Below are positions 1,478 to 18,294 of a DNA stretch of 24,271 bases, in pieces. Position numbers and translations under genes: made by a program. This DNA is from Blastocatellia bacterium (lineage in GTDB: Bacteria; Acidobacteriota; Blastocatellia; UBA7656), in contig DATEKX010000069.1 of NCBI GenBank assembly GCA_035277165.1, forward strand, positions 1-24,271, written 5' to 3'. Numbering within the stretch: position 1 is the first letter of the stretch; each line of letters opens with the position of its first letter. The notes under the pieces were generated by a model. It was given only the letters and a program-made list of their open reading frames with translations. It was not told the DNA's origin and searched no databases.

Positions 1478-1489
1478 TTGGATCGCCTC

Positions 1490-2464
1490 TCAAAAATATC
1501 TCCGCAAATCCATGCCTTCGTACATTTGCGCGACCTGATCTGCATAGCCGTTAAAGATCAAGGTGTCGCGTTTGCCGAATTCGCCTATGCGTTGTTCCGT
1601 CCTCTGGCTCCATCGCGGGTGGTTCACGTTCGGGTTCACATTTGAATAGAATCCGTATTCGTCGGGCGCGGCGATATTCCATGTAGCTGGCGGCTCTGCT
1701 TCCACGAGGCGAATCTTGACGATGGATTTGATCCCTTTGAAACCGTACTTCCACGGCACAACGAGTCGAAGCGGCGCGCCGTTTTGAGGCGGCAGCGTTT
1801 CACCATAAAGCCCGTTTGCAAGAATCGTCAGCGGGTGCATGGCTTCGTCCAATCGCAAGCCTTCGACATAAGGCCAATCCAAAATATTTGTGTTGATGTT
1901 GGGCATCTGGTTCGCGTCGGCCAGCGTCTCGAAAGCTACGTAGCGAGCTTGCGACGTGGGTTCGACGCTATCTAAAAGCTTCGAGAGCGGAAAGCCTACC
2001 CACGGGATGACCATCGACCATCCTTCGACGCAGCGATGGCGATATATGCGCTCTTCGGGCGGGCTGAGCTTTATCAGGTCATCAATATCGAAAGTCTTAG
2101 GCTTTTGAACAAGCCCGCCGACTTCTACAGTCCACGGGCGTGTGACGAAGTTTTTAGCTTTTGCGGCGACGGCCCCCTTGCTTGTCGAGAACTCGTAAAA
2201 ATTATTGTAGTGAGTTATGTCATTGTATGAAGTCGTCGCTTCGCCGACCGTTTGCTCGACCGAAGAAGGCGCAGATTGTACATCCGTGATTTTCTCTCCG
2301 ACTTTTCCGTCCTGGCTCGGTGAAGCGAACTGGCGATAAAGCCATCCGGTCGCGATAGTCGTCCCCGCAAGCACTGCTCCGCGCATAAACAGGCGGCGCG
2401 ACATATAAACATCTTTGTCCGTTATCTCGTTGCTCTTAATGTCTTCGGGCTTCTTGATCAACAT
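1490..2464 (-). CDS. msrP: Protein-methionine-sulfoxide reductase catalytic molybdo-subunit MsrP (YedY)
   Basis: Tat signal SRRLFMRG; [20 protein letters not shown] (Mo-ligating Cys), [21 protein letters not shown] and HPRWSQ. Confidence 0.96.
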
Positions 2465-2555
2465 CTCAGTTTACCTGCTTTTAATTCTACCACTGCTCAC
2501 TAAAAACTACGCGCCGCGCGACGGTCGCGGATTTTAAGTCATTTTCAAAATAATC

Positions 2556-2598
2556 AGCCCCAAAACTCGCCGCGCAAGTCCGGCAAACTTTTGGGGCT
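2556..2598 (-). terminator. Stem-loop downstream of the serine hydrolase; probable terminator or stabilising hairpin
   Basis: AGCCCCAAAA (2556-2565) pairs with TTTTGGGGCT (2589-2598), with an inner GCCG/CGGC stem; followed by GATTATTTT on the minus strand. Confidence 0.5.
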
Positions 2599-2648
2599 AT
2601 TTCATATATACATTCAGAGCGGAATTTTATTCCGGCAAGGCTGACTAT

Positions 2649-4142
2649 CTAATGCCCTTTCAACTTTTTCAGCATCTCGACGGCGTTCTGGTTCGCAGAG
2701 TCGAGCTTCAGTGACTTCTCATAGTTCTCAATCGCAAGCTCGCGGTCGCCGTTTTTCATGTATGCCTCGCCCAGACTGTCGTAAACGTTCGAGGACTGGG
2801 GATAGGCTTCTACGTTCAATTGTAATACTCGAATCGCTTCCTTCAATTTCCCGCGCGACATTAATTTGTATCCCAGATCATTCAACTGGACTTCCTCGAA
2901 CGCATATGCGGCGGGGGCGGTCTTCTTCAACTCGTAGTACTTCTTCACAGCCGCTTCAAGCCCTTCGCTCGCGATTGCTTTGGAAAGCACTATCGCTATC
3001 GCCTCTTTGAATACAATCGGCTCCGGTGGAAACCCCAGCGCCACATCCAACGCCGCATTCGTTATGCTGCCGAGCGGCAACGGGCCATCGTAATTCGACA
3101 TCATTACTACGGCCACGCCTTTATCGGGTATCATCAAAAGATTGCTGCGGAAACCCGTGTCGCCGCCGCTGTGCCCGATTGTCCGATTCTCTTTGCGCGC
3201 TCCTAAAAACCAACTGATGCCGATGTTTTGCCACTTATCCCCTGCGGGCTTCCACATAAAATCATAAGTTGGAGCCTTCAGTATTCGCTTGCCGTCAAGC
3301 TCGCCGCGATTCATATTCGCAATCGCCCATCGAGCCATATCCAACACGTTCGAGTAGAGCGTTGAACTCGGCGAGTGCATGCGATTATATGGAAACACTC
3401 GGCTCACGCTCGGCTCATACGACTCATCCAAAACATGCGGGCTCGTCAGTAGCTTCTGGTCGGCCTGTTTTACGAGCAGCGTGCTCGATTTCATTCCGAG
3501 CGGCTCAAGGATGTGATGCTTCACGTAATCTTCAAAACTCTCGCCCGAAACTTTCGCTATCACATCGCCCAGTATTTCATAAGCCATGTTGGAGTATCGA
3601 AACATAGTGCCGGGCTCTGCAATGAGCGAAAGATTAGTCAGGCTGCGCACGTATCGTTCGAGCGCGCCGTCGTCGTACTGCGGCTTGTCCCACTCGTAAT
3701 CTTCTACATCGGGCATTCCCGATACGTGGCTCAACATCTGCCGTATGGTGATCGTTTTGTATCGCTCGTCTTTCATTCGGAAGTAAGGCAGATACTTTAC
3801 GAGCGGCGCATCCAGATCAATCTTTCCCTTTTCCCAAAGCTGTATTATCGAAGTGGCGACGAATGGCTTGGTGATCGAGGCCATGTGAAACAGAGATTGC
3901 GGCGTGATCTTTTCATTCTTGTTTTTAAGATTTTTTACGCCGAAGCCTGCTGCATAAACCACCTTTTGATTTTGAACAACGGCGATGGCAAAGCCTGGAA
4001 CGTTCGCTTGTTTAAGCGCCTGTTCGATCAGCGGCTCAAGCTGCTCTTTGAACCTGTCGTTTGTTCCCTGAGCTTGAAGTTGAATGGGGAGAAGTAGAAT
4101 CGCTGAAATTAAAATGAGCGCGCGAATATTTCTTTTCGTCAT
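2649..4142 (-). CDS. Secreted serine hydrolase, beta-lactamase/AmpC-like fold, with C-terminal TPR
   Basis: Signal peptide; SxxK (ASITK), YxN (YSN) and HSGG motifs; C-terminal TPR (YPQSSNVYDSLGEAYMKNG...AIENYEKSL). Confidence 0.9.
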   Translation of the reverse strand: MTKRNIRALILISAILLLPIQLQAQGTNDRFKEQLEPLIEQALKQANVPGFAIAVVQNQKVVYAAGFGVKNLKNKNEKITPQSLFHMASITKPFVATSIIQLWEKGKIDLDAPLVKYLPYFRMKDERYKTITIRQMLSHVSGMPDVEDYEWDKPQYDDGALERYVRSLTNLSLIAEPGTMFRYSNMAYEILGDVIAKVSGESFEDYVKHHILEPLGMKSSTLLVKQADQKLLTSPHVLDESYEPSVSRVFPYNRMHSPSSTLYSNVLDMARWAIANMNRGELDGKRILKAPTYDFMWKPAGDKWQNIGISWFLGARKENRTIGHSGGDTGFRSNLLMIPDKGVAVVMMSNYDGPLPLGSITNAALDVALGFPPEPIVFKEAIAIVLSKAIASEGLEAAVKKYYELKKTAPAAYAFEEVQLNDLGYKLMSRGKLKEAIRVLQLNVEAYPQSSNVYDSLGEAYMKNGDRELAIENYEKSLKLDSANQNAVEMLKKLKGH

Positions 4143-4193
4143 CTGTGTGCCTCGCTGTTTGAGATAGTCACCTTTACTTACGCGTTGATAAGG

Positions 4194-5252
4194 TTATTTG
4201 TTTTGAAACTTCGCAATGCGACCACGCGGCCCGGCTGCCCAACCCGCGCCTGCGGCGAAACTCACAGAGTTGTAATTTTCCCGGTCAAGACCTCTCCAAT
4301 AATTGCCGCCGTCGTTTGAATAATCCGAACCCGATGTTCCGACCGCAACGAGCACGACGCCGCCTGTGCCCGGAACATATGCGACCGCCGAGCGATACCC
4401 TTTTGGCTGTGTGCCTTGTGCGAGCTTCCACGTTCGTCCGCCGTCGGCTGTCGTCGCCACATTGTTCACGGGCTCTTCGGGCCTGCTGTAATCGCCGCCC
4501 GCGACGATGCCGTTCCATGCATCTTTGAATGCGATTGAAAAGATTCCCGCCGATTGCGTGCCGCTTGTGATCGGAGTCGCTGCGACCTGCCATGTGCGGC
4601 CTCTGTCGGTCGAGCGAAACACGCGCGCAACAGAGCCGCCGCTTGCAAACCACACGTTGCTTTTGCCTTGAACGGTTATACAGGTGCCGCTCGCCGCAAA
4701 GCCTCCCTCGCCCTCGATAGCCGTCGGAAGGTTGCTGGCAGGAACTTGATTCCACGTCTTGCCGCCGTTGTCGGTTGTGATGATGAGAAAACGGCCATCA
4801 ACCGGATCGCTCATCGCGATGCCGTGATCGCGATCCCAGAAGGCCATCGCGTCGAAGAAGCCTTCAGCCGTTTTATTGGTGAATTGCAGAGTCCAGTTTG
4901 CGCCGCCATCAGTCGTTTTATAAATCCTCGATGATTCGCCCTTGCCTATGCTCAACAGGTAAGCAGTGTTCTTGTCGAATGCGTCAACATCTCTGAAATC
5001 CAACTCGCCAGCGCCCGCCACAGTTCCCGCGCGCCAGGTCTTGCCGCCGTCGGTCGTTCGCGTGTAAGTGCCGCGAGTCCCGCTCGCCCACGCGACCTTA
5101 GAACTAACGGCGCACAGTCCGCGAAAGTCTGCATTCGTGCCGCTCGACTGCAAGTTCCATTGCGCAGGTGTCGTGTCGCCTGCGAGCAAGAAAAAGATAA
5201 ACAAAAGACCGGCTTTAATTAATCTCATTCGCATCCATTTGCCTCGCGTCAT
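4194..5252 (-). CDS. YCF48-like / BNR (Asp-box) repeat beta-propeller secreted protein
   Basis: Signal peptide and repeated Asp-boxes (TTDGGKTW, TTDGGANW, TDNGGKTW, STDRGRTW, TADGGRTW, SNDGGNYW). The start may be slightly downstream (MRMRL). Confidence 0.85.
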   Translation of the reverse strand: MTRGKWMRMRLIKAGLLFIFFLLAGDTTPAQWNLQSSGTNADFRGLCAVSSKVAWASGTRGTYTRTTDGGKTWRAGTVAGAGELDFRDVDAFDKNTAYLLSIGKGESSRIYKTTDGGANWTLQFTNKTAEGFFDAMAFWDRDHGIAMSDPVDGRFLIITTDNGGKTWNQVPASNLPTAIEGEGGFAASGTCITVQGKSNVWFASGGSVARVFRSTDRGRTWQVAATPITSGTQSAGIFSIAFKDAWNGIVAGGDYSRPEEPVNNVATTADGGRTWKLAQGTQPKGYRSAVAYVPGTGGVVLVAVGTSGSDYSNDGGNYWRGLDRENYNSVSFAAGAGWAAGPRGRIAKFQNK

Positions 5253-6211
5253 GAATTGCTTGATGTTTCGACTCGCTCAATTATGTCGATACGCCGCACG
5301 TCAATCGTCAGCATATCGTTTTCCAACTGGCGATTGAATACGTTAGCGAACCGTGCGTTCCAGATTACCTCGTCAGCTTTGTAAGAAGACCGCGCGTGAA
5401 CGGTCTGCGAAAATGTCTCGTCAATGCCCGTCAAAAGAATCAGAAACTCCGCATCCGTCCGGCGCAGGTCTTCCTGCGTCAGGCCGTAAAGCGGACTGGT
5501 CTCGTCAACCGGATGCACAATCGTCCAGCTCAAGGGGAAGAAGACTACCTTGTCGCGTTCAAGTGTTAAAGGATAAAAACGGCGGACGCTCTTTCCGCCT
5601 TCATCTTTTTCAAATTGCGCGAAAAGGATTTTGGCTTCAAGCTCGATGATTTGATTAGTGCGCGCGTTTGTGATGCGAAACTCAAACGCCGTTATGTCTC
5701 CGTAAGGCGCGACGATGGCTCGTTGGCTGAATATGATCTTAGCCGTCGGTCTGGAAAACCTTGCGAACAACAATCCTGTGGCGAGCGCGAATCCAAGAAG
5801 GCCGACTAAAGACTCGATAGTGACGATCACGTGCGCAGCCGGTCCCGTGGGGATGATGTTGCCATAGCCGATTGTCGCGAACGTTTCTACGCTGAAGAAG
5901 AACGCGCACAGAAAATCGTTTTTGAAAGTCACTTCCGGCGAAGTGACCAGCGCGCCCGGCCCGCATGCCATGTAGGCGAATGCGAAGATGAGGTTGCCGA
6001 TGAGGTAAAAAAGCGCGACGAGGCTCAAAAATTTCGACCATGACATGGTCAGCAACCGATGATAAATACTGAGCGATGTCCAGAAGCTCAACCCCCGGCG
6101 CGCGACGTTGAAGCTGCCATCTCGATTTAAGAGGCGTTGTCGGCTTTCGTGCGCGACCACCGAGCCAAATCCCAGATCGCGATTCTCTTCTTCTTTGCTT
6201 GCACGGCGCAT
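5249..6211 (-). CDS. Inward-rectifier potassium channel (KirBac family)
   Basis: Two TM helices around the filter ETFATIGYG; FARFSRP; Kir cytoplasmic domain (FEFRITNAR, FFPLSWTIVHPVDETSPL, FSQTVHARSSY). Confidence 0.93.
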   Translation of the reverse strand: MRRASKEEENRDLGFGSVVAHESRQRLLNRDGSFNVARRGLSFWTSLSIYHRLLTMSWSKFLSLVALFYLIGNLIFAFAYMACGPGALVTSPEVTFKNDFLCAFFFSVETFATIGYGNIIPTGPAAHVIVTIESLVGLLGFALATGLLFARFSRPTAKIIFSQRAIVAPYGDITAFEFRITNARTNQIIELEAKILFAQFEKDEGGKSVRRFYPLTLERDKVVFFPLSWTIVHPVDETSPLYGLTQEDLRRTDAEFLILLTGIDETFSQTVHARSSYKADEVIWNARFANVFNRQLENDMLTIDVRRIDIIERVETSSNS

Positions 6212-6298: not shown

Positions 6299-6392
6299 GT
6301 AGGGGCAGGGACAAGCCCTGCCCGGATCGCCGACAGGCGATAATTAGTCATGGTCTTACGACCATCCGGGCAGGGACAAGCCCTGCCCCTAC
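6299..6392. repeat. Pair of REP-like palindromic units (GTAG...CTAC flanked)
   Basis: GTAGGGGCAGGGACAAGCCCTGCCCGGAT (6299-6327) and ATCCGGGCAGGGACAAGCCCTGCCCCTAC (6364-6392); each unit folds as GGGCAGGG-ACAAG-CCCTGCCC. Confidence 0.75.
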
Positions 6393-6517
6393 ATGACATG
6401 CCAACCGCCCTGTGGGCCGAATCGGAAATCAATCCATCCTTGCTAGAACGCGCGCTGATAACGTATGCTGGCGCTTCACTCGCATCAAAGACATTAAACC
6501 TTTCAGGATTATTTCTC

Positions 6518-7846
6518 ATGAATGATCGCCGCGAATTGTTCGGCTGGTACATCTATGATTGGGCAAACTCTGCTTTCTACACGGTTGTAGTGACAGTCTT
6601 TCTCGGCCCCTATCTGACTACTGTCGCGGAAACGGCGGCTGACGCCGATGGATTCATCTACCCGCTAGGCATAGGAGTCTCGTCAGGTTCTTTCTTCTCT
6701 TACGTTGTCTCTGTGTCGGTATTTTTTCAGATGCTCTTTCTGCCTTTACTGGGCGCTATCTCGGATTACTCGAATCTGAAAAAACAGATGCTGGCTTTCT
6801 TTGCCTACACAGGCTCGTTTGCGACGATGGGGTTATATTTTCTGGATGGCGACCGTTATATGCTGGGCGGTGTGCTGTTTCTCGTAGCAAACTTCAGCAT
6901 CGGCGCTTCTTTAGTTTTCTACAACGCCTACCTCAACGATGTCGCAAGCCCCGACCGCCGGGACTCTGTTTCGTCAATAGGCTTTGCATGGGGTTACATT
7001 GGCGGCGGGTCGTTGCTGGCAGCAAACCTCGGGCTTCTTTTTAAAGCAGAATCTTTGGGACTCAGCCGTTCGCATGCGGTTCGTATCAGCCTGTTGTCAG
7101 CCGGATTATGGTGGGCCCTGTTCACGCTTATTCCAATGGCGCTTCTCAAGCGCAGGCGGGCGCAAAAGAGCCTGCCGCCCGGAGAGAGCCATCTGAAAGT
7201 AGGACTTAAACAGCTCAGGCATACCCTGAAAGATTTGATTCACTATCCGCAGACGCTGCTGTTTCTGCTTGCGTTCCTGCTTTACAACGATGGCATACAA
7301 ACGGTCATAGCGCTGTCGGCGCAGTTCGGAAGTAAAGAGCTTGGACTTGAACTCTCAACGCTTACGGCAACAGTCCTTGTCGTGCAATTCGTCGCCTTCT
7401 TCGGCGCAACTATCTTCAACTTCATCGCAAAAAAAGTGGGTACGAAGCGGGCCATCATCATCAGCTTGATTATATGGATAGGCACGATCATCTATGCTTA
7501 TGCTGCGCTCAGGACTGCGCGCGATTTTCTGATCATGGGCGCAGTCATCGGCCTTGTGCTTGGCGGGAGTCAGGCGCTCAGCCGCTCGCTTTATTCGCTG
7601 ATGATCCCTAAGGGAAAGGAGGCCGAGTATTTCAGCCTCTATGAAGTGAGCGACAAGGGGACTAGCTGGCTTGGGCCGCTGCTGTTCGGGCTGGCATATC
7701 AATTCACAGACAGCTATCGCATCTCGATTCTTTCGCTGGTGATATTTCTGGTTGTCGGACTCGCGCTGTTACTTTTTGTCAACGTTAACAAGGCGATTAA
7801 GGAAGCAGAAGGCAGTCAGCAAAAGGCGGAAGCCACAGGGCAGTAG
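6518..7846 (+). CDS. MFS transporter, UMF1/Atg22-like family
   Basis: GWYIYDWANSAF N-terminal signature, about 12 TM helices, GGSQALSRS motif. ATG 6518 chosen because the ORF-track extension to 6350 runs through the REP repeats. Confidence 0.9.
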   Translation: MNDRRELFGWYIYDWANSAFYTVVVTVFLGPYLTTVAETAADADGFIYPLGIGVSSGSFFSYVVSVSVFFQMLFLPLLGAISDYSNLKKQMLAFFAYTGSFATMGLYFLDGDRYMLGGVLFLVANFSIGASLVFYNAYLNDVASPDRRDSVSSIGFAWGYIGGGSLLAANLGLLFKAESLGLSRSHAVRISLLSAGLWWALFTLIPMALLKRRRAQKSLPPGESHLKVGLKQLRHTLKDLIHYPQTLLFLLAFLLYNDGIQTVIALSAQFGSKELGLELSTLTATVLVVQFVAFFGATIFNFIAKKVGTKRAIIISLIIWIGTIIYAYAALRTARDFLIMGAVIGLVLGGSQALSRSLYSLMIPKGKEAEYFSLYEVSDKGTSWLGPLLFGLAYQFTDSYRISILSLVIFLVVGLALLLFVNVNKAIKEAEGSQQKAEATGQ

Positions 7847-7883
7847 GCAATCGATGCCTGCTGCCCATTGCTTTCTGCTTACT
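7803..7883. repeat. Inverted short tandem heptamer repeats (RGCAGW type) between convergent genes
   Basis: AAGCAGA/AGGCAGT/CAGCAAA/AGGCGGA/GGGCAGT/AGGCAAT followed by complementary CTGCCCA/TTGCTTT/CTGCTTA units. Confidence 0.55.
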
Positions 7884-8475
7884 TCGACGGAGCGTAAAAA
7901 GGATTCTGGCCCGAAGCGTGATCCGTCGAGTCGAATATCTCGCGCACTTGAGGCACCTGATCGCGAATCATTCTTTCGATGCCCATCTTCAAAGTAACGT
8001 CTGCAGCGCCACAGCCCTGACAGCCTCCGCCCATGCGTATGAACACGTTGTCGTCCTGCACGTCGAGCAGTTCGACAAAGCCGCCGTGCGCAGCCACGCC
8101 GGGATTGATCATATCGTCAAGCACTTGCTGCACTCGCGTGCGTACAGCCTCAGACGGCAGCCGGTCGCCTTCGGCAACGGGCGGGGGCGGATTGAAGAAA
8201 GTGCGAATGGCAGAGCCTATGCGTTTGCCAAGCTGTCGCCAGTCTTCATTGCCTGTCTGGGTCACGGCCACACGGTATCCGTCAAGCTCTACTTTCGAGA
8301 TGCCCGGTATTTTGAAAAGCCTGTCGGCCAGGTCGTTGTCCTTCGATTCTTCGGCGCTGGTGAAAACAGCCGAACCGGAATGAACCGGGCGATCAACCGT
8401 GAAACGGCAAACGCGAATATCTTGCTGGTCTACTTCTGCTCTTATCTGAATGTTATCGGCTAATGGTGAACTCAT
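7879..8475 (-). CDS. Nfu/NifU-family Fe-S cluster carrier (Nfu_N domain plus NifU-C domain)
   Basis: C-terminal INPGVAAHGGFVELLDV...MGGGCQGC (CxxC); N-terminal scaffold-like domain (LADRLFKIPGISKV); strong RBS GAAGGAG. Confidence 0.9.
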   Translation of the reverse strand: MSSPLADNIQIRAEVDQQDIRVCRFTVDRPVHSGSAVFTSAEESKDNDLADRLFKIPGISKVELDGYRVAVTQTGNEDWRQLGKRIGSAIRTFFNPPPPVAEGDRLPSEAVRTRVQQVLDDMINPGVAAHGGFVELLDVQDDNVFIRMGGGCQGCGAADVTLKMGIERMIRDQVPQVREIFDSTDHASGQNPFYAPSK

Positions 8476-8573
8476 ATCAAAGCTCCTTCAATGTAATTGT
8501 AAATGATGAACGCGAGAGCAGGAAGGATGAATCCGGCGATTTCATATTTCAAATCTTTCATTCATCGTTGCTC

Positions 8574-10007
8574 TTAAACTCCTGATCTTTTTTCGAGAGG
8601 ACCAAACTGGTCCCGTGTAGGCTCCGCTCAGCAGAACCATGCTTCGGTAAGACGCGGCGGGCGAAGCTTCATCGGCGCAATATCAGGCGCATAGCGAATC
8701 ATTTCTTCATCGCCGCGCGCTCGATGTGCCGCGTCGCAAATTCGTTGAAACGTAAAGCCGGAGTCTTCATTTCTGCGAGCCGCCTGCTCGACTATCCGAA
8801 CAACCTGTTTGTGTAGCTCGTCCATCCGTGGGTCTGTGTGCGACCAGTTGTAACTGAACGATTCTTGCGCAAGCGGCCCAAGCCACGCTTCGGTGCCGGG
8901 TCGTGAAACAAGCAGCGAACCGGGCGGCACAAGCAACCGAATGCTGTATTGCACAGGGTCAACATGATCTATGAGATTGTGCGAGCGAACGAAATCGAGC
9001 ACTTCAATAAAATCATCAATTGTAGTCCACGGCGTGAAGGACACGAAAGACGGCCTGAGCGCGATGCCCGCATCGCGAAGTATGTGAAGCGCACGGCCTA
9101 CATCCCCGCGCGCGTGGCCCTTTTCGAGATGTGCGAGAACAATGTCGCTCAACGACTCAACCGCAGAGACCACGAAAACGCAGCCCGCGCGGGCAAGTTC
9201 TGCGATCAGCGAGCGATACTTGATTATGTGCTCGACCTTCGCCGTGAAATCGAAAGTCAGTTCGGGAAACTCTTCGTGCATTGCGCGCGCGATTCTAAGG
9301 CTGTGCGTCGGGCCGTTTAGAAAATCAGGGTCGCCGAATGTAATGTGACGAGCGCCCGACCCAACAAGCTGGCGAATGTCTTCGAGCACAACCTGCTCAG
9401 GCACGACGAAGAAGCGACCGTTGTAAACAGGTGGAATCGGGCAGTGCGTGCAATAGTGAAGGCATCCGCGACTTGCTTCGACGTAGCCCGCAAGCTGCTG
9501 CTCGCCGTTGTGCTCAAGCTTGGCGTAACGTTCGAGCGCGGGAAGTGCGCTGCGCTCTGGAAGCGGAAAATCCAGCCGCGCAAGCACAGGCAGCTTTTTC
9601 GCGCTGACCTGTGACCCTTCGTCTATCTCTTTGATCAGATCAACAAGCGACTGCTCAAACTCTCCGCCAATTACAGAATCGGCCACATTATTGAGCAGGT
9701 AATCCGCGTTGAGCGAAGCGTACAAGCCATAAAAGCAAATATGTGCGTGAGGATTGATGCGGCGAATCGTTTCGCCAACGCGCAGTCCCAACCTCAAGGC
9801 CGTGTGCATCGGAACCGATATGCCGATGAAGCGCGCGCGCTTCACTTTCTGCTCATCGAAACCTTCGACTGACACATCCATCGCTTCGGCCTCGTACCCG
9901 GCGCGACGCAAAAATCCCAGCGGCACGGCGAGGCTCGCAGGCTGATGCCCAAGCTCGTAGCACGAAACAAGCAGGATGGAATCGGTTTTGCCATTCGATA
10001 CATTCAT
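8574..10007 (-). CDS. Radical SAM selenoprotein, CUAEP/CCAEP-tail type, with in-frame UGA (Sec) at 8628-8630
   Basis: CxxxCxxC in EASRGCLHYCTHCP; N-terminal cobalamin-binding-like domain. The ORF-track stop is TGA after WFC; read-through gives WFC-U-AEPTRDQFGPLEKRSGV, ending at TAA 8574-8576. The family name is recalled from curated annotation, not searched. Confidence 0.88.
8598..8627 (-). promoter_or_regulatory. Putative bacterial SECIS element
   Basis: mRNA reads UGA-GCGGAGCCUACAC-G-GGACCA-GUU-UGGUCC-U: a 6-bp stem plus G.U pair, with the loop G 21 nt after the UGA. Confidence 0.7.
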
Positions 10008-10045
10008 CTTTAATTATTGTAGAGACATAATGCCTGCTTCGCCAT

Positions 10046-11278
10046 TTATTCGATTATGAACTCAAGCCGCGAATGAGCTTCACGAAGCGCGGCTTCGGCT
10101 CTTTCGGCGGTGGCGGCGCGGCTGAAGATGAACCCCAGATAGCTCGCGCCTTCCGGCGGCGGCTGAATTTCCTGCGTGATGTGCGCGCTGATGATTACGT
10201 CTTCAACGCCCATCACACGGCGAGCCTCGTCCACGCCATTGACTTCGCGCAGTATGCCTGAGCGAGGAACTGGAATCATCATCACGCCTGATGCCTGAGC
10301 TTCTCGCTCGATGCGGCTTACATCTTCGCCCAGCGCGTGGCGAATCAACACTTCTTCAAGTGAAGCCCCTTCGCCGAATCTGAGCGCACGCGAGCACAAC
10401 CCGCCGATGGCGCGCGCAGCCACTTCAATCACCCACGGCCCTTGATCGTTTACGCGCAGTTCTGCGTGTACAGGGCCTTTCGTCATGCCCATAGCGCGCG
10501 TTGCGGCTGCCGTAGTCTCTATAACCTGCTGCTGAACTTCCGAAGAGAGGCGCGAAGGAGTCACGTAGATTGTTTCCTCGAAGAAAGGCCCGTCAAGTGG
10601 ATCGGGCTTATCGAAAATTGCGAGCGAGCGAAACCGGCCATCAGTGACAAGCCCTTCGACTGCAACTTCAAAGCCCGGAATGAACTCTTCGATCAAAGCT
10701 TCGCGAGCCAGAGCGCCGCCGCGCCGCGCAATGTGCGGCTTACTGACGATACGGTCAAGTCGCGCGATTGCTTCGACCAATGCTTCTTCCGTGTTGGCTC
10801 GCATCACTCCGCGACTCGTCGAAAGAAAGACAGGTTTGATCACGCAAGGATAAACGACGCGTGCGGCAACCAGGCGCGGGTTTTCGTCAAGCGAGACGGG
10901 CCAGTAGCGCGGCACACGCACGCGGGCGCGGCTCAAAACTTCGCGCATCAAGTGTTTGTTCTTTGCCGCGCGCGCTGACTCTACGGGATTATGTTCAAGA
11001 CCGAGCGTCTGTGCGATTGATGAAGCGACCACAGCCGTATCTTCATCAACAGGGATGACGGCATCAACTTTGTGTTGCGCGGCGTACTCTGATGCTTTGC
11101 GCGCAGATTGTGCAGGGTCGAAGAAATCGAGCGTCAACAAACCTTCGGGATTTTGCGCTGCAAGCGTGCTGGGCTGTTCGGTAGCCGCGACAATGTTGAC
11201 GCCCAGTTTGAGCGCCGCATCCATAAATGCTTTCGTGCGATATGTTGTTGTGGGCAGAAGTAAAAGGACTCTCGGCAT
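10046..11278 (-). CDS. ATP-grasp domain protein (L-amino-acid ligase-like)
   Basis: KHLMREVL, YPCVIKPVFLSTSRGV, LIEEFIPGFEVAVEG, HAELR and VIEVAARAIGG, plus a C-terminal extension typical of LAL-type ATP-grasps. Confidence 0.88.
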   Translation of the reverse strand: MPRVLLLLPTTTYRTKAFMDAALKLGVNIVAATEQPSTLAAQNPEGLLTLDFFDPAQSARKASEYAAQHKVDAVIPVDEDTAVVASSIAQTLGLEHNPVESARAAKNKHLMREVLSRARVRVPRYWPVSLDENPRLVAARVVYPCVIKPVFLSTSRGVMRANTEEALVEAIARLDRIVSKPHIARRGGALAREALIEEFIPGFEVAVEGLVTDGRFRSLAIFDKPDPLDGPFFEETIYVTPSRLSSEVQQQVIETTAAATRAMGMTKGPVHAELRVNDQGPWVIEVAARAIGGLCSRALRFGEGASLEEVLIRHALGEDVSRIEREAQASGVMMIPVPRSGILREVNGVDEARRVMGVEDVIISAHITQEIQPPPEGASYLGFIFSRAATAERAEAALREAHSRLEFIIE

Positions 11279-11293
11279 AAACTCTCGACTGCT

Positions 11294-11959
11294 TCAACGA
11301 TGCTCGTCCACGCCTACTTGTTGACACATCTCAAGCACAGGACAGGTAGAGCAGCGCGGGAGCCTGCCTGTGCAGATATGTTTGCCGAACGGTACAAGAA
11401 GGCGATTGATCTCTACCCAGTACTGGCGCGGCAGTTTTTTAACGAGCGCTTCCATAGTCTGCTCAGGCGTGCGAGTTTGAACATAGCCCCAGCGATTTGT
11501 TACTCGGTGAACATGTATGTCAACGCCGATGTAAGGCTGGCCGCACGCGATGCCAAGCACAAGATTGGCGCACTTGGGGCCGACGCCCTTGAACGAAAGC
11601 AGCGTGTCAGCATCGCACGGCAGTTTGCCATCGTGTTCTTCGATTACGCGGCGAGCGATTTCATGAATCTGTCGCGCTTTGTTCTCGTGAAAAGTTGAAG
11701 GGCGAATTATCTCGTCAATCTCTTCCGTCGTCAGGCGACTGATCTCTTCAGGCGATCGCGCGCGCGCGAACAATTTGCGCGCCGTTGGCAGCATCACTTC
11801 GTCGTAAGTGCGGATAGAGATGATACAGGCGACGAGTTGCTCGAACGGCGAATCGAAGCCGTCTTCGGCCAGCTCGAACATCGCAGCTTTGGCGAAAGGC
11901 TCGGTTGCTTCACGGATTCGGCTGATTGCCGTATCGATATTAAATGGAGGTTTCGCCAT
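11294..11959 (-). CDS. nth: Endonuclease III (HhH-GPD DNA glycosylase with 4Fe-4S cluster)
   Basis: HhH GVGPKCANL (catalytic Lys), VDIHVHRV (catalytic Asp), and C-x6-C-x2-C-x5-C (CTGRLPRCSTCPVLEMC). ATG 11959 preferred over the ORF-track start at 11995. Confidence 0.9.
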   Translation of the reverse strand: MAKPPFNIDTAISRIREATEPFAKAAMFELAEDGFDSPFEQLVACIISIRTYDEVMLPTARKLFARARSPEEISRLTTEEIDEIIRPSTFHENKARQIHEIARRVIEEHDGKLPCDADTLLSFKGVGPKCANLVLGIACGQPYIGVDIHVHRVTNRWGYVQTRTPEQTMEALVKKLPRQYWVEINRLLVPFGKHICTGRLPRCSTCPVLEMCQQVGVDEHR

Positions 11960-12004
11960 AATTGCTGATCTTAACACAGACCGCGCGACGCCCACATCGC
12001 CGCT

Positions 12005-12013
12005 TGCTATGAT
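12005..12013 (+). promoter_or_regulatory. Extended -10 element (TGcTATGAT), probable native promoter of the gene now at 17603
   Basis: TGnTATGAT lies 21 nt upstream of the ATG inside the attL core (12035), divergent from nth. Confidence 0.45.
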
Positions 12014-12029
12014 ATTAATTCTACAGCAA

Positions 12030-12046
12030 TTTTTATGGACATATTA
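12030..12046 (+). other. attL core site
   Basis: TTTTTAT-GGACATA-TTA; the left arm plus overlap match the reconstructed attB inverted repeat. Confidence 0.8.
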
Positions 12047-12127
12047 GTAATTTGGTTGGCGCGCGTTCTGTTTTCACCATTTAAGACGCGAAACTAGCCG
12101 CAAAAGTTAGAAAACTTCGCACGTTGT

Positions 12128-12148
12128 TATTACCCAAACTGTGACCCA
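12128..12148 (+). repeat. Integrase arm-type binding sites (left end)
   Basis: TATTACCCA (12128) and TGTGACCCA (12140) in tandem at 12-bp spacing. AAACTGTGACCCAGT (12136-12150) is repeated exactly at 17520-17534. Confidence 0.7.
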
Positions 12149-12731
12149 GTATGGCACAACACTATAAACAACGCAGATATCATTGAGCCGAACTCTGCAA
12201 TGCTTGCGCTAGAATGCCTTCAGAGCGATTTTCTCTCCCGGCCATCTGAGACTCGGACAGAATCATCCCGGCTTGAAATAGGCAGGTTTCCGCTTTACGG
12301 TAGACCCTCATAGAATTAGGGTAGCAATGCGCTAGATGCGCAACCGGCTGTGCCTGTGACGATCAATAATCTACAGCATGTAAATATAGGTGCCGACAGA
12401 GGCCAGTAGACGAATGTGGTAAATAGGGGAGCTTACACATCTATTCCGAGCTGAATAGGATCAAAAGGCAGCAGCCGACTGCGGGAAGTTTCATTTTGCA
12501 ATGTTCCCATTACGGCAAATAAAGATTTAAATGACATGACTAAAGAATTCTTCGACGATACTCCCAAACCTGTAAACTGTTTATTCAGGATGCTCGATTT
12601 CTCAGATTACTCAAATCTTCTTCCCGCCCGCGAGCATTATGACCTGAGGTTGGACTTTATCAATATACTTATAGCTTCAGAGAAATTGCTAATGTGCGAC
12701 TACAGACTTTTGTGTGTTGGTGGTTCGAGCT

Positions 12732-13760
12732 TTAGTTATTATTTTCCAAGTCACTCTCGATGATCTCCTTGATTGAATTGCAGATTGCGACTAATGCAGG
12801 GAGGGGAAACGACGACGAACTCGCTATGATACACTGCCCGTCAATTCGGAGGCCATCCCAGCCGTAAGAAAACTCAACATCTGGGAAGTAGGCGTACTCT
12901 ATGCGTCCGTTATGTCCAATGAGCTTGTAATAAATTGCTGTCCCAGTAAAGGCGATGGCTCTCTTTGCTGAACCGAATACAGTAGAGTCAATTATCGCAA
13001 TAATCTTTTGGGTTGCCGGAACAGCACAGTATGACCTGGCATTCATCAGTTTATTGGGCGGGATATTCGGTGTGACATAGAAGTCTGGTTGTGATTGATA
13101 TTCTTTCAATATTTCTAAGAGGTGATCTCCAATATCTCGTCTTCGCTTCCTGCGCATATTTTCAGCAGGTATCGTGCACACGAAAAAGAAAATAACAACA
13201 ATAATAGCTAGCCCTCCAGACGTTCCCCATCTTGCGAGTGTAGACATGAAGGCCAGGTAATTCAGAACGGCAACATGTGTAGCGAAACAAAAAACAGGGA
13301 TGAATAAAAACAGACATCCCTGTTTTTTCTGGTAGGCTTTTGTATCTAACTCCTGCAAGAAGAATGACAAAATGAATGCGAGCCAGAACTCACTTGCTAA
13401 CAGGACAATTATACAAGGCCATGGCTGAGAACGAAGGAAGGTAATCCCCCAAAGAGGAAAAAGTAAGACTGGAAGTAATATAAAAGCTACTCGAAGCCAA
13501 CGTGTAGACACTTTTAAAGCGATGAGAGTGAAAGCTAGGCATGCGTAGACCGCTGTTGCGAATGCGAAAGATTGATCGGAAAAAAAAAAGAAGATTTTCC
13601 AGTTAGTGTTTGGAAGCAACGACCATGAAAATCTAAGAGAAATCTTAGGATATTCGAGGCTACTTGAAATGGTTGCAAGGTTCGCTAAGAACGAGGCAGA
13701 ACCCGTCACGAACGCAATGAATGATGCTATGCCTGAAAAACAGGAGTTGTTGTTATTCAT
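12732..13760 (-). CDS. Hypothetical multi-pass membrane protein with C-terminal soluble domain
   Basis: 342-aa ORF; about 6-7 hydrophobic segments, then RRKRRR, then a soluble domain (PNIPPNKLMNA...IIDSTVFGSAKRAIAFT). Confidence 0.75.
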   Translation of the reverse strand: MNNNNSCFSGIASFIAFVTGSASFLANLATISSSLEYPKISLRFSWSLLPNTNWKIFFFFSDQSFAFATAVYACLAFTLIALKVSTRWLRVAFILLPVLLFPLWGITFLRSQPWPCIIVLLASEFWLAFILSFFLQELDTKAYQKKQGCLFLFIPVFCFATHVAVLNYLAFMSTLARWGTSGGLAIIVVIFFFVCTIPAENMRRKRRRDIGDHLLEILKEYQSQPDFYVTPNIPPNKLMNARSYCAVPATQKIIAIIDSTVFGSAKRAIAFTGTAIYYKLIGHNGRIEYAYFPDVEFSYGWDGLRIDGQCIIASSSSFPLPALVAICNSIKEIIESDLENNN

Positions 13761-13954
13761 GATTGATTTTTAAGAGCAGCACCTTAAATGGTTTAAGTTG
13801 CATCTCCTAATATGATTTAGCCTCAGGTACGATGCATATACATTTGCATGGGATATATACTCGTATAATCTTATCTCCATCAATTAGCTTGTTAGAGCGC
13901 AGTGTATATCACAATCTCAGGAGGCATGAAAGCAAGAAAAACACATATTGAAGT

Positions 13955-13982
13955 TTGACACCGTCTCGTTTCTAAATATAAA
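13955..13982 (+). promoter_or_regulatory. Sigma70-like promoter with no long downstream ORF
   Basis: TTGACA-16 nt-TATAAA; overlapped by the imperfect inverted repeat AGGGATAC-N8-GTGTCCCT (13982-14005). Confidence 0.5.
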
Positions 13983-14458
13983 GGGATACCCTTTCAAGTG
14001 TCCCTGTCCTTGCTATGAAGCATGGGCCGCGTTCGCATCACGGTCCTGCTCTATCATTCGCTTGATTAAATCAAGGTAGGCTGAATCCTGCTGTCATTGT
14101 GCGGAGTAAGATTCTTTGATTAGTCCCGAATTAGAAACTCCACAACTCCGCTCCCTCATGCCAGTAGCGATGCTCGCGCGGCTGTCTCGCGGCGGCTCCC
14201 TTACTGCTCATATCTATAAATTTCGGCTCGCACATTTAGCCGCTGCGAGACTTTTAGATGCGAGATGATTGCGCAACGCCACGTACGACTTCCGGTGAAG
14301 GTCTCGCGCAAACGTCCGTAACGTTTCGCGACCAGAAAGGTAATTGTTTTGCAACAGGCAAAGAACGCGCACGAGTGGCGGAGGAACTTTATTCCTGTTA
14401 AGACAACTTGCTTCAATTACAGTATAGGCAGGCTGCATCTTAGAAACTGTATGTGGAG

Positions 14459-15667
14459 TCAGGGCCGATCTAAATAGACCATATATTGGCATCGGCCATT
14501 TTCACCGTTTAATCTGAGGAGGTACTGCCCATCAGCCGGTGGCGTGAAGGGTATTTCTTGTACACGATCATGAAATATATTTATTGGTTCCTTTAGCTTC
14601 CGGCCTCTGGAATCATAGATTCCAGCCTTAAACCTTGCAAGAAGTTTAGGGCTATACTCTCCTGCTCGAACAGTAAAAAGCAAAGGCGAATTAGCAATCC
14701 CGTCGAACTTGTAATTCTTGTATTGGCCCACAACAATTGTTCCATTCTTTTTATTTCCAACCTCAATACGTTCTATATCAGGCTCATCCTCACGTTTAGC
14801 TACCTGATCATCTGACGATGGTTTATTAGGCTTATCCGGTTGGTGTATTTGATTGGTAGGACTAGTTTCGACTTCAGATAATCGCGTGGTGTTTGCAGAA
14901 TCGCCTGTGAAGTGGAACTGTCCTACTAATGATGATGACTCCCAAGGTGTTTGCCGATCACCCGTTGCTCTGCGAACCGCGACACGCACACTCTTGAATA
15001 CTTCTTCCACACTTAATCCTGGCATACGCATAGCCTTTAGGAGTTCTTGAGTATAAAGCCCATTTCTTCCTGTCCCATCGCTTGCAACCGATCCAGGCGC
15101 TGTTGCATAAGCGATGAGCGTTCCGCTCGGAGCATCCATCGAAGCAAGCCCTTTTTGTGTGGAGCGAAAACTTCTAGCAAAAGGGTTATTTCGACAAGCA
15201 TCAAGAATGACAATGTTAAGACGATTACGAGCAGTCTCCATTTGCGCCAACACTAGACCGACATCAACCGACTCATACTCAACCTCTTCTTCGCTTGCGA
15301 TTGTAGCGCCCACCGGAATTAAATAATTGCTTCCTTTTATTTGCATACCATGACCGGCATAGTAGAAAAGCCCTATCCCGCCATTGCGAATTTTTTGACC
15401 GAAGGCCCGAATACTGCGCTTCATATCATTCTGCGACAGGTTTTCGCCAAGTATGACTTCAAAGCCAACGCTTCGCAGGGTTTGGGCCATGTCTCTGGCA
15501 TCATTAACAGGATTTAGTAAAGGTGAATCTTTGTAAGTGCTATTGCCTATGACCAATGCGACACGTTGTTCTGAACGGGCATCTTTCATTATTAACTTAC
15601 GATCCTGAGCATGTGAGGAAAATAAAACCAGCAAAAACAAATAAAAGATACAAAGTAGGTTTTTCAT
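14459..15667 (-). CDS. Caspase-family (peptidase C14) protease with signal peptide and C-terminal PPC-like beta domain
   Basis: RVALVIGNSTY, YYAGHG (catalytic His), ILDACRNNPF (catalytic Cys), YATAPG and QTPW; N-terminal MKNLLCIFYLFLLVLFSSHA/QD; RBS AAGGAG. Confidence 0.92.
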   Translation of the reverse strand: MKNLLCIFYLFLLVLFSSHAQDRKLIMKDARSEQRVALVIGNSTYKDSPLLNPVNDARDMAQTLRSVGFEVILGENLSQNDMKRSIRAFGQKIRNGGIGLFYYAGHGMQIKGSNYLIPVGATIASEEEVEYESVDVGLVLAQMETARNRLNIVILDACRNNPFARSFRSTQKGLASMDAPSGTLIAYATAPGSVASDGTGRNGLYTQELLKAMRMPGLSVEEVFKSVRVAVRRATGDRQTPWESSSLVGQFHFTGDSANTTRLSEVETSPTNQIHQPDKPNKPSSDDQVAKREDEPDIERIEVGNKKNGTIVVGQYKNYKFDGIANSPLLFTVRAGEYSPKLLARFKAGIYDSRGRKLKEPINIFHDRVQEIPFTPPADGQYLLRLNGENGRCQYMVYLDRP

Positions 15668-15785
15668 GAATGTACTCCTTGGAATCAAGGCAGTTTTTCA
15701 GGCATATCACAAACCGACATTAACCTTGCGCGCAATCTATATCACAAACTAATTGCAAATTAAAAGTCTGGGCCGCGCTCGCATC

Positions 15786-16163
15786 ATGGCCCTTAATGAG
15801 GGTCAGAAGGTAGATCATCTACCTTCTGAGGCAAGAAACGATGCTAGAAAGAGGATATCTAAGAAAACAGAAGAGAATAAGGTATCCCCTTCTAGAAGCG
15901 TGGTTGAGTGCCCGGACAAGTCAAAAAAAATCGTTCTCGATGCAGCCATCTCGCGCAATACCGGCAACGACCAGTCAATGATTGTTCGGAGTGAAGCAGG
16001 CACAGCATTAGATGGAAGGCGTTATGTCTCGATTGAAGAAGGCGCGTCGGAAATTCCCTTTGACGAAATTGAATACGAGTCGCCATCTGTGGCCGGGTCG
16101 TCTGATCCTCTGGTTCAGGCGCTGACCGAAGATGAAGCCGAATCAGAAGAGCCTAAGATTTGA
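15786..16163 (+). CDS. Hypothetical protein (charged, acidic C-terminus)
   Basis: Open frame upstream of and co-oriented with xis; no recognisable motif; start uncertain (15753 or 15786). Confidence 0.45.
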   Translation: MALNEGQKVDHLPSEARNDARKRISKKTEENKVSPSRSVVECPDKSKKIVLDAAISRNTGNDQSMIVRSEAGTALDGRRYVSIEEGASEIPFDEIEYESPSVAGSSDPLVQALTEDEAESEEPKI

Positions 16164-16218
16164 TTCAGAAGATAATAATCAAGTGTAATGATTCGGCCTG
16201 AAAGAGTGGTGTTGAACG

Positions 16219-16509
16219 ATGAGTAATACAATAGCATTTCCAAAAAAGCGCGATGACACGAGCAAACAAGTACTGCCAATGCTCGATCTGCCAGAGCCGC
16301 GCATCTGGAGCCCGCAAAACCTCGCTGACTTTCTCGGTATGTCTATTCACTGGGTTCGCAAGCGAACAGAATCAAAAGCCGAAGACCCAATCCCTCGCGT
16401 TGCTGGCGTGGGGTGGCTGCGCTTCGATGCTCATTCGCCAGCCTTTCAACAATGGCTGCGAAGATTATTAGGCTCTGGCTATATTGACAATGTTGAAGGT
16501 GATGAATAG
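16219..16509 (+). CDS. Excisionase / recombination directionality factor (winged HTH)
   Basis: WSPQNLADFLGMSIHWVRK...IPRVAGVGWLRFD is a Xis/HTH_17-like pattern; immediately upstream of the integrase. Confidence 0.75.
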   Translation: MSNTIAFPKKRDDTSKQVLPMLDLPEPRIWSPQNLADFLGMSIHWVRKRTESKAEDPIPRVAGVGWLRFDAHSPAFQQWLRRLLGSGYIDNVEGDE

Positions 16510-16561
16510 AGTAGCGGCGAAAACAGAACGCGGGCCGCAACAAGAAAGGAGACTTCTTATC

Positions 16562-17565
16562 ATGGCCCGTAGAAAAAGTTGCCAACACGGTAGCGTTCAG
16601 GAGCACAACGGTCAATGGACTGTTGTATATCGTGAGTTTGATCATGCCAAACGCAAATGGGTGCAAAAGCGTGAAGGTCTAGGCAAGCTCAAAAACAAGA
16701 AAGCCGCACTCAAAGCAGCCGAGCCTATTCTGGCTAGGGTGAATGAGCGCAACAACGACACAGGATGGCACTGCATCAATGCGCCTCTGACTTTCAAGGA
16801 ATTCATTGATAAACGATGGCGAGCTTACGCAGCCAGCGCAAAACACAAACGCTCGACAATGGATACCTATGACACCTTGCTTAAGAATCAACTTATCCCG
16901 GTCTTTGGTGAAAAAACAATGACCGAGATAACGTCTTCCGACATCAGCGACTTTCTCGATGCCAAGCGCGGCGCTCTAGCTAATAATACGATCCATGTGC
17001 TTTACGGGATGTTGCGATTGATATTCGAGATTGCGCGCCAATATGACCTGATTGAGCAAAGCTCAGTTAGGTCGCTAGTCCACAAGCCCGAATCTGAAAA
17101 GACGGAAAAGGCAACGCTCACGCCGCCGCAGATTCGTGCCCTACTGACGGCATTGTGTGAACAGGAGCGGCTTTATCTGCTTCTATTGGCTGTAACTGGA
17201 ATGCGAATGAATGAAGGCTTGGCTTTGCGCTGGATGGATATGGTGAATCGTTGAGCGTAACTACGCTTCGCAGGCATTTACAGAAGGCAATGGATGCAAC
17301 AGGCATCAAGCGCGTCGAACGACAATATGGGTTTCATATATTCCGCCACTCTGCCGGGACGCTTCTATACGGCAAGTTGCGTGATTTGAAACTCGTTCAG
17401 GCAGTGCTCAGGCACTCGGACATTTCAACCACCGCAGACATCTACGTCCATACAGATGAACAGATAGTGACTGAAGGTTCGGCGGTGCTGACAGAAACGA
17501 TTTTGGGTGATTTTCTGTTAAACTGTGACCCAGTTGTTACCCAAGAATCGGAAATGGTCAGTTAA
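16562..17565 (+). pseudogene. Tyrosine integrase split in two frames with internal deletion
   Basis: The N-part (16562-17254; RBS AAGGAG) has arm-binding and SAM-like domains and TGMRxxE. The C-part (about 17242-17565) has HIFRH, LRHS and the Tyr in TTADIY. Only about 43 residues separate the catalytic Arg from HxxR. Confidence 0.85.
17524..17543 (+). repeat. Integrase arm-type binding sites (right end)
   Basis: TGTGACCCA (17524) and TGTTACCCA (17535) in tandem at 11-bp spacing, within the 3' end of int. Confidence 0.7.
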
Positions 17566-17601
17566 GTGTAATGAGTAAAGGGTTGAAAGCTCTTCGGAGC
17601 C

Positions 17602-17618
17602 TATGGACATAATAAAAA
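17602..17618 (+). other. attR core site overlapping the start codon of the downstream gene
   Basis: TAT-GGACATA-ATAAAAA; the ATG at 17603 lies inside the duplicated core. Confidence 0.8.
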
Positions 17619-18184: not shown

Positions 18185-18222
18185 ACCTTTATATTATGGC
18201 GTTTAACAGTGAAACTTAATGC

Positions 18223-18251
18223 TTGACGCTACAGGGTGCGCGCAGTATAAT
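18223..18251 (+). promoter_or_regulatory. Sigma70 promoter of the MarR gene
   Basis: TTGACG-17 nt-TATAAT. Confidence 0.85.
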
Positions 18252-18253
18252 AC

Positions 18254-18284
18254 TTAATATAGATTAATTATTAATCTATATTAA
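18254..18284. promoter_or_regulatory. Palindromic operator (probable MarR autorepression site)
   Basis: Perfect inverted repeat TTAATATAGATTAAT-T-ATTAATCTATATTAA between the -10 and the RBS (GGAGG). Confidence 0.8.
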
Positions 18285-18294
18285 CGGAGGCTGA

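Follow-up and report, generated by a model that had tools for sequence, protein, structure and literature searches.

A recurrent gene module of an ATP-grasp ligase, a CUAEP-tail radical SAM selenoprotein and an Nfu-type iron-sulfur carrier in a Blastocatellia bacterium

The locus and its selenocysteine codon

The window analysed here is the whole of a 24,271-nucleotide stretch from a Blastocatellia bacterium of the Acidobacteriota (contig DATEKX010000069.1, assembly GCA_035277165.1), and our subject is a group of genes on its minus strand centred on a radical S-adenosylmethionine (radical SAM, rSAM) selenoprotein. This protein, which belongs to a family with a C-terminal CUAEP tail, comprises 477 amino acids (aa) including a selenocysteine (Sec, U) at position 460, and is encoded at 8574-10007. 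Its gene is preceded by one for an ATP-grasp protein of the L-amino-acid-ligase (LAL) type (410 aa; 10046-11278) and followed by one for an Nfu-type iron-sulfur (Fe-S) carrier (198 aa; 7879-8475) with an Nfu_N domain and a NifU domain. Upstream of the ligase gene is an nth-like gene encoding an endonuclease III-like glycosylase (11294-11995), for which a first-pass annotation made from the sequence alone had used an alternative ATG at 11959. That annotation had presented the four genes as a candidate pathway, and the arrangement it described is borne out by the listing of open reading frames (ORFs) together with a translation in which TGA is read as U: all four genes lie on the minus strand, and the gaps that separate them, taken in order from nth, are exactly 15, 38 and 98 bp, the last of which holds only if the TGA is read through. 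Three of the four products are indeed Fe-S related, as indicated by a four-Cys loop in the nth product, a CxxxCxxC motif in the rSAM protein and a CQGC motif in Nfu. Four co-oriented genes with short gaps are ordinary when taken alone. Comparison with related loci, described below, reduces the core to a three-gene module of ligase, rSAM selenoprotein and Nfu carrier, to which nth is a bystander.

For this comparison one genome per species was scanned for the rSAM protein, giving at least 599 pattern matches, of which 585 were confirmed by tblastn. The best 80 of these 585 confirmed matches, from more than ten phyla, are referred to as loci L001-L080. ORFs in their neighbourhoods were called with codon-position GC weighting and clustered, and each family was confirmed by tblastn; unless stated otherwise, a gene is counted as a neighbour if it lies no more than 2.5 kb from the rSAM gene in these 80 loci.

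Directly after the codon for Cys459 the rSAM reading frame contains a TGA (8628-8630), which on translation as U460 is followed by 17 sense codons forming the end of the tail (AEPTRDQFGPLEKRSGV; 8577-8627) and then by a TAA stop codon (8574-8576). The resulting sequence TEAWFC-U-AEPT conforms to the tail motif W-F-C-[U/C]-A-E-P, which is found in 76 of the 80 loci. The Sec position is TGA in 60 loci, with AEPTxxQ in frame after it, and TGC or TGT in 16 (15 recognised by motif and L025 by eye); the remaining four are cut by contig ends at the tail. The RNA 3' of the window TGA was folded and contains a hairpin resembling a selenocysteine insertion sequence (SECIS), GGGACCA-GUU-UGGUCCU (8598-8614), that begins 13 nt beyond the TGA. 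Hairpins with 5 bp or more, set at a constant distance 3' of the TGA, are present in 57 of 60 TGA sequences (59 loci plus the window, L059 being too short) versus one of 15 loci with a Cys codon, and they comprise 51 distinct sequences with a CAGUU-type loop. Since Rfam offered no family for the window hairpin at gathering score, we called it SECIS-like from our own comparison of these hairpins. The Cys-Sec tail noted in the first pass is therefore real, in that the TGA position, the in-frame tail and the hairpin all recur in related loci, and the window TGA is predicted with confidence to be a genuine Sec codon. In alignment A2 the CAGUU loop (window 8598-8614) coincides with codons for Gln and Phe/Leu; the Q[FL] conserved after AEPTxx in the Sec forms can be explained by the RNA structure constraining the protein sequence.

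Relationship of the radical SAM selenoprotein to ArsL

NCBIfam places the rSAM protein in NF040546 (CUAEP/CCAEP-tail radical SAM (seleno)protein), with a score of 701.8 bits (cut-off 500) over positions 1-467 of the 468-position model. At E ≤ 1e-30, a library clustered at 50% identity contains 504 representatives of this family, which consists mostly of selenoproteins and is spread over more than ten phyla. The Pfam Radical_SAM domain (PF04055) scores 49.3 bits, and the cysteines of the CxxxCxxC motif (C182, C186 and C189) are invariant in an alignment of 41 diverse family members (A1). Outside the CU pair, the protein contains no additional conserved cysteines that could hold an auxiliary cluster. 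The second-best family is ArsL (NF040542; 340.3 bits) of the arsQML system for arsinothricin, which is by far the best-scoring characterised family, every other family, including B12-type rSAM proteins, reaching at most 49.6 bits. A further alignment (A3) sets the window protein and six family members beside three ArsL-like proteins that end in KRCC[LI]KC (P0348, P0357 and P0368), with which they run collinear at 34-36% identity. The 34 invariant columns include the rSAM cysteines and an H-x2-F-x-D-x2-F-x-N stretch, and the CC pair of ArsL falls on C459-U460, with U460 on the second Cys.

With ArsL the window protein shares an N-terminal Rossmann-like domain, the CxxxCxxC core and a C-terminal vicinal chalcogen pair, and as judged from these alignments and scores it is an ArsL paralog. 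The two nevertheless differ in several respects. The window tail, C-U-A-E-P, offers two ligands and follows a linker of about 40 residues, whereas the CCxxC tail of ArsL (RCCLKC) offers three. The window protein is a selenoprotein whose partners are a LAL ligase and Fe-S carriers, in place of the arsM, arsQ and arsenic context of ArsL; neither arsM nor arsQ nor any other arsenic-resistance gene was found in the window. NF040546 is also far the larger family, its 504 representatives in the 50%-identity library standing against 147 sequences quoted for ArsL (10.1101/2024.02.01.577332). An AlphaFold model of the window protein based on A1 has a mean pLDDT of 93.8, with residues 451-470 at about 90. 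Its best fold match in the PDB is AprD4 (6FD2; TM score 0.69-0.72), an rSAM 1,2-diol dehydratase with the same two-domain layout, followed by OxsB, TsrM, MgmA and MiaB; no ArsL structure is among the PDB matches listed. In contrast to the window protein, with which it shares 17-18% identity, AprD4 has no Cys-Sec tail and performs canonical 5'-deoxyadenosine (5'-dA) chemistry on an aminoglycoside.

NF040546 itself is already named, and the accessible part of the report by Haft calls it uncharacterised and one of few families with a CU motif (10.1101/2022.07.06.499078). A 2026 selenoproteome review, so far as its available portion goes, contains no functional study of the CUAEP family (PMC13188914). 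The literature searched likewise yielded no link or fusion to a LAL ligase, no Fe-S carrier partner and no reading as an ArsL-like 3-amino-3-carboxypropyl (ACP) transferase for NF040546, and the statement of the first-pass annotation that no substrate is assigned still holds there.

Conserved neighbours of the radical SAM gene

The ATP-grasp protein contains three domains that score above their Pfam cut-offs, ATP-grasp_4 (118.4 bits), LAL_C2 (62.4 bits) and ATPgrasp_N (29.9 bits), as do known LALs (BL00235, BacD of bacilysin synthesis and DdaF). Among proteins of solved structure it is closest to two L-amino acid ligases, BL00235 (3VOT), to which it is similar along its full length (E 2.8e-35 over residues 35-408), and BacD; it reaches no NCBIfam equivalog, the best score being 127.7 bits against a cut-off of 625. 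The three domains and these closest relatives support the earlier assignment of the protein as a probable LAL-type ligase.

Orthologs of the ligase, with 45-76% identity to that of the window, lie near the rSAM gene in 29 of the 80 loci, a count that rises to 30 when the limit is set at 10 kb. Of the 41 loci whose sequence extends for at least 2.5 kb to either side of the rSAM gene, 17 have the ligase. Six or seven phyla are represented among the ligase-linked loci (Acidobacteriota, Rokuibacteriota/Methylomirabilota, Nitrospirota, Planctomycetota, Chloroflexota and Thermomicrobiota), with at least six gene orders and orientations. The order is ligase, rSAM, Nfu in Blastocatellia; rSAM, NifU, ligase in Rokuibacteriota/Methylomirabilota; rSAM, DUF169, ligase in Nitrospirota; and simply rSAM, ligase in L065 and L074. 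A convergent ligase gene follows YggX and rSAM in Chloroflexota and Thermomicrobiota, and follows rSAM and Nfu in L017 and L018. Phylogenetic analysis of the window protein, 79 loci (L037, whose rSAM ORF was missed by the caller, is absent) and three ArsL-like outgroups, by a quick method with the LG+G4 model, places the ligase-linked loci scattered across the whole family.

The two enzymes also occur as natural fusions in both orders. The rSAM part comes before the ligase in P0391 (860 aa) and P0393 (869 aa, with 6 member sequences), the latter being 44% identical to the window rSAM protein over residues 3-410 and 46% identical to the entire window ligase over residues 452-863. The ligase comes first in P0371 (850 aa), which keeps a CCAAP tail. 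A second kind of carboxylate activator, a PaaK-like adenylating enzyme, is fused to a family member in P0392 (NF040546, 591.6 bits). A lack of co-occurrence in other genomes, which the first pass had named as its refutation, is not seen, and the linkage of ligase and rSAM goes beyond shared ancestry. It is this pairing, and elsewhere fusion, with an rSAM enzyme that sets the window ligase apart from known LALs; we know of no description of such a combination, nor did we find one in the literature searched.

The third gene encodes a protein with Pfam scores of 80.3 bits for NifU and 40.6 bits for Nfu_N, which reaches 88.5 bits on the NfuA equivalog TIGR03341 (cut-off 269.35), the C-terminal part alone matching. 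The neighbour cluster of NifU-domain proteins and A-type carriers is represented in 29 of the 80 loci, 24 of which have a NifU domain and five (L023, L042, L052, L056 and L068) only an A-type carrier (Fe-S_biosyn). YggX, reaching the "oxidative damage protection protein" equivalog, is found in 16 loci and never together with NifU, and CDGSH in eight; 45 of the 80 loci have one or more genes for Fe or Fe-S trafficking (Nfu/NifU, A-type carrier, YggX or CDGSH), and an Fe partner is present in 24 of the 41 with at least 2.5 kb on both sides. An Fe partner also accompanies 24 of the 29 ligase loci, the exceptions being L005, which runs out at a contig edge, and four Nitrospirota-clade loci with DUF169 (PF02596) in its place. 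DUF169 genes occur on the same strand in 14 of the 80 loci (e.g. L035:635-1363 and L055:7442-8227). Four cysteines are conserved in 13-14 of the 14 DUF169 sequences, which suggests that this is a metal or Fe-S protein. In L016 (Bacteroidota; 1551-6004) the rSAM gene is part of a suf-like operon encoding, in this order, SufS, IscU, FeS_assembly_P, an A-type carrier, rSAM and Nfu, and Rrf2 regulators are encoded upstream in L023, L033 and L042.

The earlier suggestion that Nfu supplies clusters fits this pattern, as a predicted role, since NifU-domain genes recur in 24 of the 80 loci and are replaced elsewhere by other Fe or Fe-S trafficking genes. Lipoyl synthase has its sacrificial cluster reloaded by NfuA and NFU1. 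The window resembles these systems in pairing an Nfu-type carrier (NifU domain, CxxC) with an rSAM enzyme; it differs in that the carrier gene lies beside that of its presumed client in many phyla, with YggX, A-type carriers or CDGSH as replacements, and in that the window Nfu has an Nfu_N domain where NfuA has an A-type N-domain.

The nth-like product contains an HhH-GPD domain (74.9 bits) and the four-Cys loop at its C-terminus, and scores 164.3 bits on endonuclease III TIGR01083, below the cut-off of 211.7, and is classed as a family relative. An ortholog lies near the rSAM gene in L001 alone among the 80 loci. We therefore rejected nth as a member of the unit, contrary to the first-pass proposal: it stands upstream in the window and L001 only, and in L004 and L005 its place is taken by selD, divergently oriented upstream of the ATP-grasp gene (L004:3884-4981, minus strand, 357 bits; L005:1957-2919, minus strand, 329 bits; cut-off 125). 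Both selD-bearing loci are from Blastocatellia, and L004 has the Cys form of the rSAM protein. On the other side of the module, convergent with the Nfu gene, is a gene for an ATG22-like major facilitator superfamily (MFS) transporter (6350-7846, plus strand; Pfam ATG22, 366 bits), orthologs of which are found only in L001-L004, all Blastocatellia. Recurrence beyond the lineage of the window is thus observed for the ATP-grasp and NifU genes, but not for nth and the MFS gene, which are lineage-specific neighbours.

A consensus scan detected no promoter-like site within the three intergenic gaps. A 12-bp hairpin (7838-7866, strand not assigned) where the MFS and Nfu genes converge is, on the consensus scan only, a possible terminator, terminator-like sites not being enriched over shuffled sequences (8 versus 5.1, standard deviation 2.2). 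A 29-codon ORF with a hydrophobic core (8473-8562, minus strand), whose stop codon overlaps the ATG of the Nfu gene, was set aside as probably due to chance because it is not conserved in the closest loci, L001-L004. Scans of the whole window revealed no tRNA and no Rfam family at gathering score.

Elsewhere in the window, the GC content of 12001-19000 is 0.40-0.49, compared with 0.53-0.57 on both sides. This stretch contains a 342-aa multi-pass membrane ORF that matched no family (12732-13760, minus strand), a caspase-like Peptidase_C14 gene (14459-15688, minus strand) and a phage-type integrase split into two overlapping frames (16484-17254 and 17251-17565, plus strand) with the middle of the catalytic domain missing, and looks like the remnant of an integrated element. 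At 851-2464 (minus strand), the gene for a molybdopterin oxidoreductase domain (1490-2464) is paired with one for a membrane protein of the ferric-reductase type (851-1477), an arrangement that resembles the MsrP/MsrQ pair. A homolog of Kir-type potassium channels (5249-6211, minus strand; IRK_C, 92.6 bits, and Ion_trans_2) overlaps with its end the start of a BNR-repeat gene (4194-5252) by 4 nt.

Proposed chemistry and alternative explanations

We consider it very probable that the ligase, the rSAM selenoprotein and the Fe-S carrier form a functional unit. A model for its chemistry is provided by ArsL, which, according to two reports, cleaves SAM to methylthioadenosine and an ACP radical or Fe-bound ACP species, the ACP group passing to arsenite (10.1101/2024.02.01.577332; 10.64898/2026.04.29.721666); the accessible text of the second also has arsenite bound through all three cysteines at the C-terminus (10.64898/2026.04.29.721666). 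ArsL is the only canonical-CxxxCxxC rSAM enzyme so far known to make an ACP radical (10.1101/2024.02.01.577332). In the mechanism that we propose, the window rSAM protein would likewise break the C-gamma-S bond of SAM on its [4Fe-4S] cluster and would move the ACP group onto an atom held by the Cys-Sec pair, giving a gamma-substituted 2-aminobutyrate, that is, a homocysteine- or methionine-type amino acid. The ATP-grasp enzyme would activate a carboxylate with ATP and join this amino acid to a second one, and Nfu would load or reload the rSAM cluster, a task for which an A-type carrier, YggX, CDGSH or DUF169 may substitute in other loci. The ACP-type cleavage, the nature of the atom on the arm, the order in which the two enzymes act and the role of Nfu are what we infer from the comparisons above, and the mechanism as a whole is tentative, its likelihood falling somewhat short of even.

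That the atom on the arm is sulfur or selenium is a guess, favoured because of the SufS, carrier and selD contexts. Methionine is an ACP-type amino acid. A product of this type is favoured because BL00235, the closest solved LAL, makes Met-Gly and Met-Met with methionine as N-terminal substrate, as stated in the accessible portion of its description (PMC6920838), and because a carboxylate activator is fused to the family member P0392. A more detailed scheme, in which the ArsL-like selenoenzyme would forge a C-S, C-Se or C-metal(loid) bond via ACP on a swinging Cys-Sec arm, with Fe-S or persulfide carriers (Nfu, A-type, SufS and YggX) supplying the atom and the ligase building a dipeptide, is in our estimate decidedly unlikely in that full form.

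Several observations weigh against ArsL-like ACP transfer coupled to ligation. The third Cys of the ArsL CCxxC motif is absent from the window protein in A3, and the score of that protein on the ArsL model is under the cut-off (340.3 versus 450). Among the Pfam hits of neighbours in the 80 loci there is no arsM or arsenic transporter, and a single ArsR-type HTH protein (L021). No functional study of NF040546 was found in the literature searched, subscription journals and preprint supplements lying outside the search. In 50 of the 80 loci the available flanking DNA contains no ligase gene, and 11 of the 41 loci with sequence for at least 2.5 kb to either side lack all five recurrent partner families within 2.5 kb. 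The Fe-S neighbours fit a role in cluster biogenesis or sulfur trafficking equally well. Finally, the fusions P0391 and P0393 are without any CU or CC tail, a linker of about 41 residues joining the two domains, and the Cys-Sec arm is therefore not indispensable for the chemistry in every member; it may be a hand-over device and not part of the catalytic core.

The same tail-less fusions suit an accessory redox arm better than a substrate-holding one, as would be expected if the protein were a cobalamin-dependent (class B) rSAM enzyme applying 5'-deoxyadenosyl chemistry, such as methylation, to a small molecule or peptide that the ligase produces, with the tail serving as a redox or H-atom-donating arm. 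The N-terminal Rossmann-like domain does match Pfam B12-binding, at 31.6 bits, and the cobalamin enzymes OxsB, TsrM, MgmA, CysS and TokK are among the fold matches. This B12-binding score is, however, a near miss of the gathering cut-off (32.1) and weak evidence when taken alone, B12-type rSAM families reach no more than 50 bits against 340 for ArsL, and no cobalamin-related gene is found among the neighbours scanned. The best fold match is moreover AprD4, and a 2026 review states, in the part available, that AprD4 and ArsL homologs bind no cobalamin despite their Rossmann-like domains (PMC12931638). The premise of the first-pass annotation that cobalamin-domain rSAM proteins often methylate is consequently ill-suited to this protein and the weaker lead, and we regard a cobalamin-dependent reaction as unlikely. 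A role of the rSAM enzyme in Fe-S biogenesis, repair or S/Se trafficking, acting for instance on a carrier-bound cluster or persulfide with the carriers as working partners and the ligase as an accessory, would account for Fe and Fe-S trafficking genes being the commonest neighbours (45 of 80 loci), for the interchange of NifU with YggX and the equivalog that YggX reaches, and for the suf-like operon of L016. The Rrf2 regulators, the DUF169 neighbours with their four conserved cysteines and the position of selD beside the ligase in L004 and L005 are in keeping with it too. Against such a role, the linkage and fusions of the ligase point to an amino-acid-like product, and the 11 partner-free loci among 41 are not explained by it; we know of no Fe-S assembly step that involves an rSAM enzyme of this type, and assign the idea a low probability.

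The homology with ArsL, in which the CC pair aligns with CU, is also compatible with a carbon-metal(loid) pathway like that of arsinothricin, in which Cys-Sec would bind As(III), methylarsenite, Sb(III) or Hg(II) and an organometal(loid) amino acid would be formed; the ligase would convert this into a dipeptide antimetabolite, for export by the MFS transporter. CU motifs, with their rare Cys-Sec dipeptide, are linked to organometallic systems in the accessible part of Haft's report (10.1101/2022.07.06.499078). One CCAEP-tail member, P0254, carries a C-terminal MerB (alkylmercury lyase) domain, and a MerT-like gene that scores below cut-offs adjoins the rSAM gene in L014 (4345-4833, minus strand; Planctomycetota). 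LALs such as BacD make dipeptide antibiotics, and an ATG22-type MFS gene is next door in the window and in L001-L004. The window nevertheless contains no ars or mer operon, and unlike the known organometallic CU systems (the SAO system, HgcA and MerT-type proteins) it and the scanned neighbours have no SAO, hgcAB or mer genes save the MerT-like gene of L014; tblastn of the MerB portion of P0254 against the 80 loci gave no hit, and the MFS gene is confined to one lineage. Because both enzymes are 45-60% identical across phyla and occur in Fe-S housekeeping contexts, the module looks more like core metabolism than a sporadic antibiotic cluster, and a metal(loid) pathway appears very unlikely. 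That the four genes share no function and are neighbours by chance or through common Blastocatellia ancestry agrees with the lineage-specific nth and MFS genes, and stands for nth. For the other three genes it is contradicted by the adjacency of the ligase, in altered orders and orientations, across six or seven phyla, by the fusions of rSAM and ligase in both orders and by NifU-domain genes adjacent in 24 of 80 loci, and as an account of the whole locus it is extremely improbable.

Two further ideas were rejected. The tail is not regarded as a LysW-like carrier loaded by the ATP-grasp enzyme, in view of the tail-less fusions, of CCAAP members that lack the Glu and of a ligase of the type that acts on free amino acids. 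Maturation of a ribosomally synthesised and post-translationally modified peptide (RiPP) was discarded since no conserved precursor-like ORF was found near the rSAM gene. One 95-aa neighbour family, with no function assigned, is confined to five loci of Rokuibacteriota/Methylomirabilota.

NF040546 emerges as the larger sister family of ArsL, with its function unassigned. For enzymologists, the module supplies a partner ligase that is sometimes fused, dedicated Fe-S carriers and a short list of candidate substrates, and the natural all-cysteine orthologs can be expressed without Sec machinery. If ACP is transferred to sulfur or selenium, this would be a new carbon-chalcogen bond-forming reaction in what would be the second known CxxxCxxC rSAM family with ACP chemistry. 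Aerobic soil and marine Acidobacteriota, Rokuibacteriota, Nitrospirota, Planctomycetota and Chloroflexota would then have a new way of making an amino acid of the homocysteine or selenohomocysteine type, or else a low-molecular-weight thiol or selenol that is itself new, and such a metabolite might come to light in soil phyla that have been little studied. Should ACP transfer fail as an explanation, the module would still mark a function closely tied to Fe-S cluster supply.

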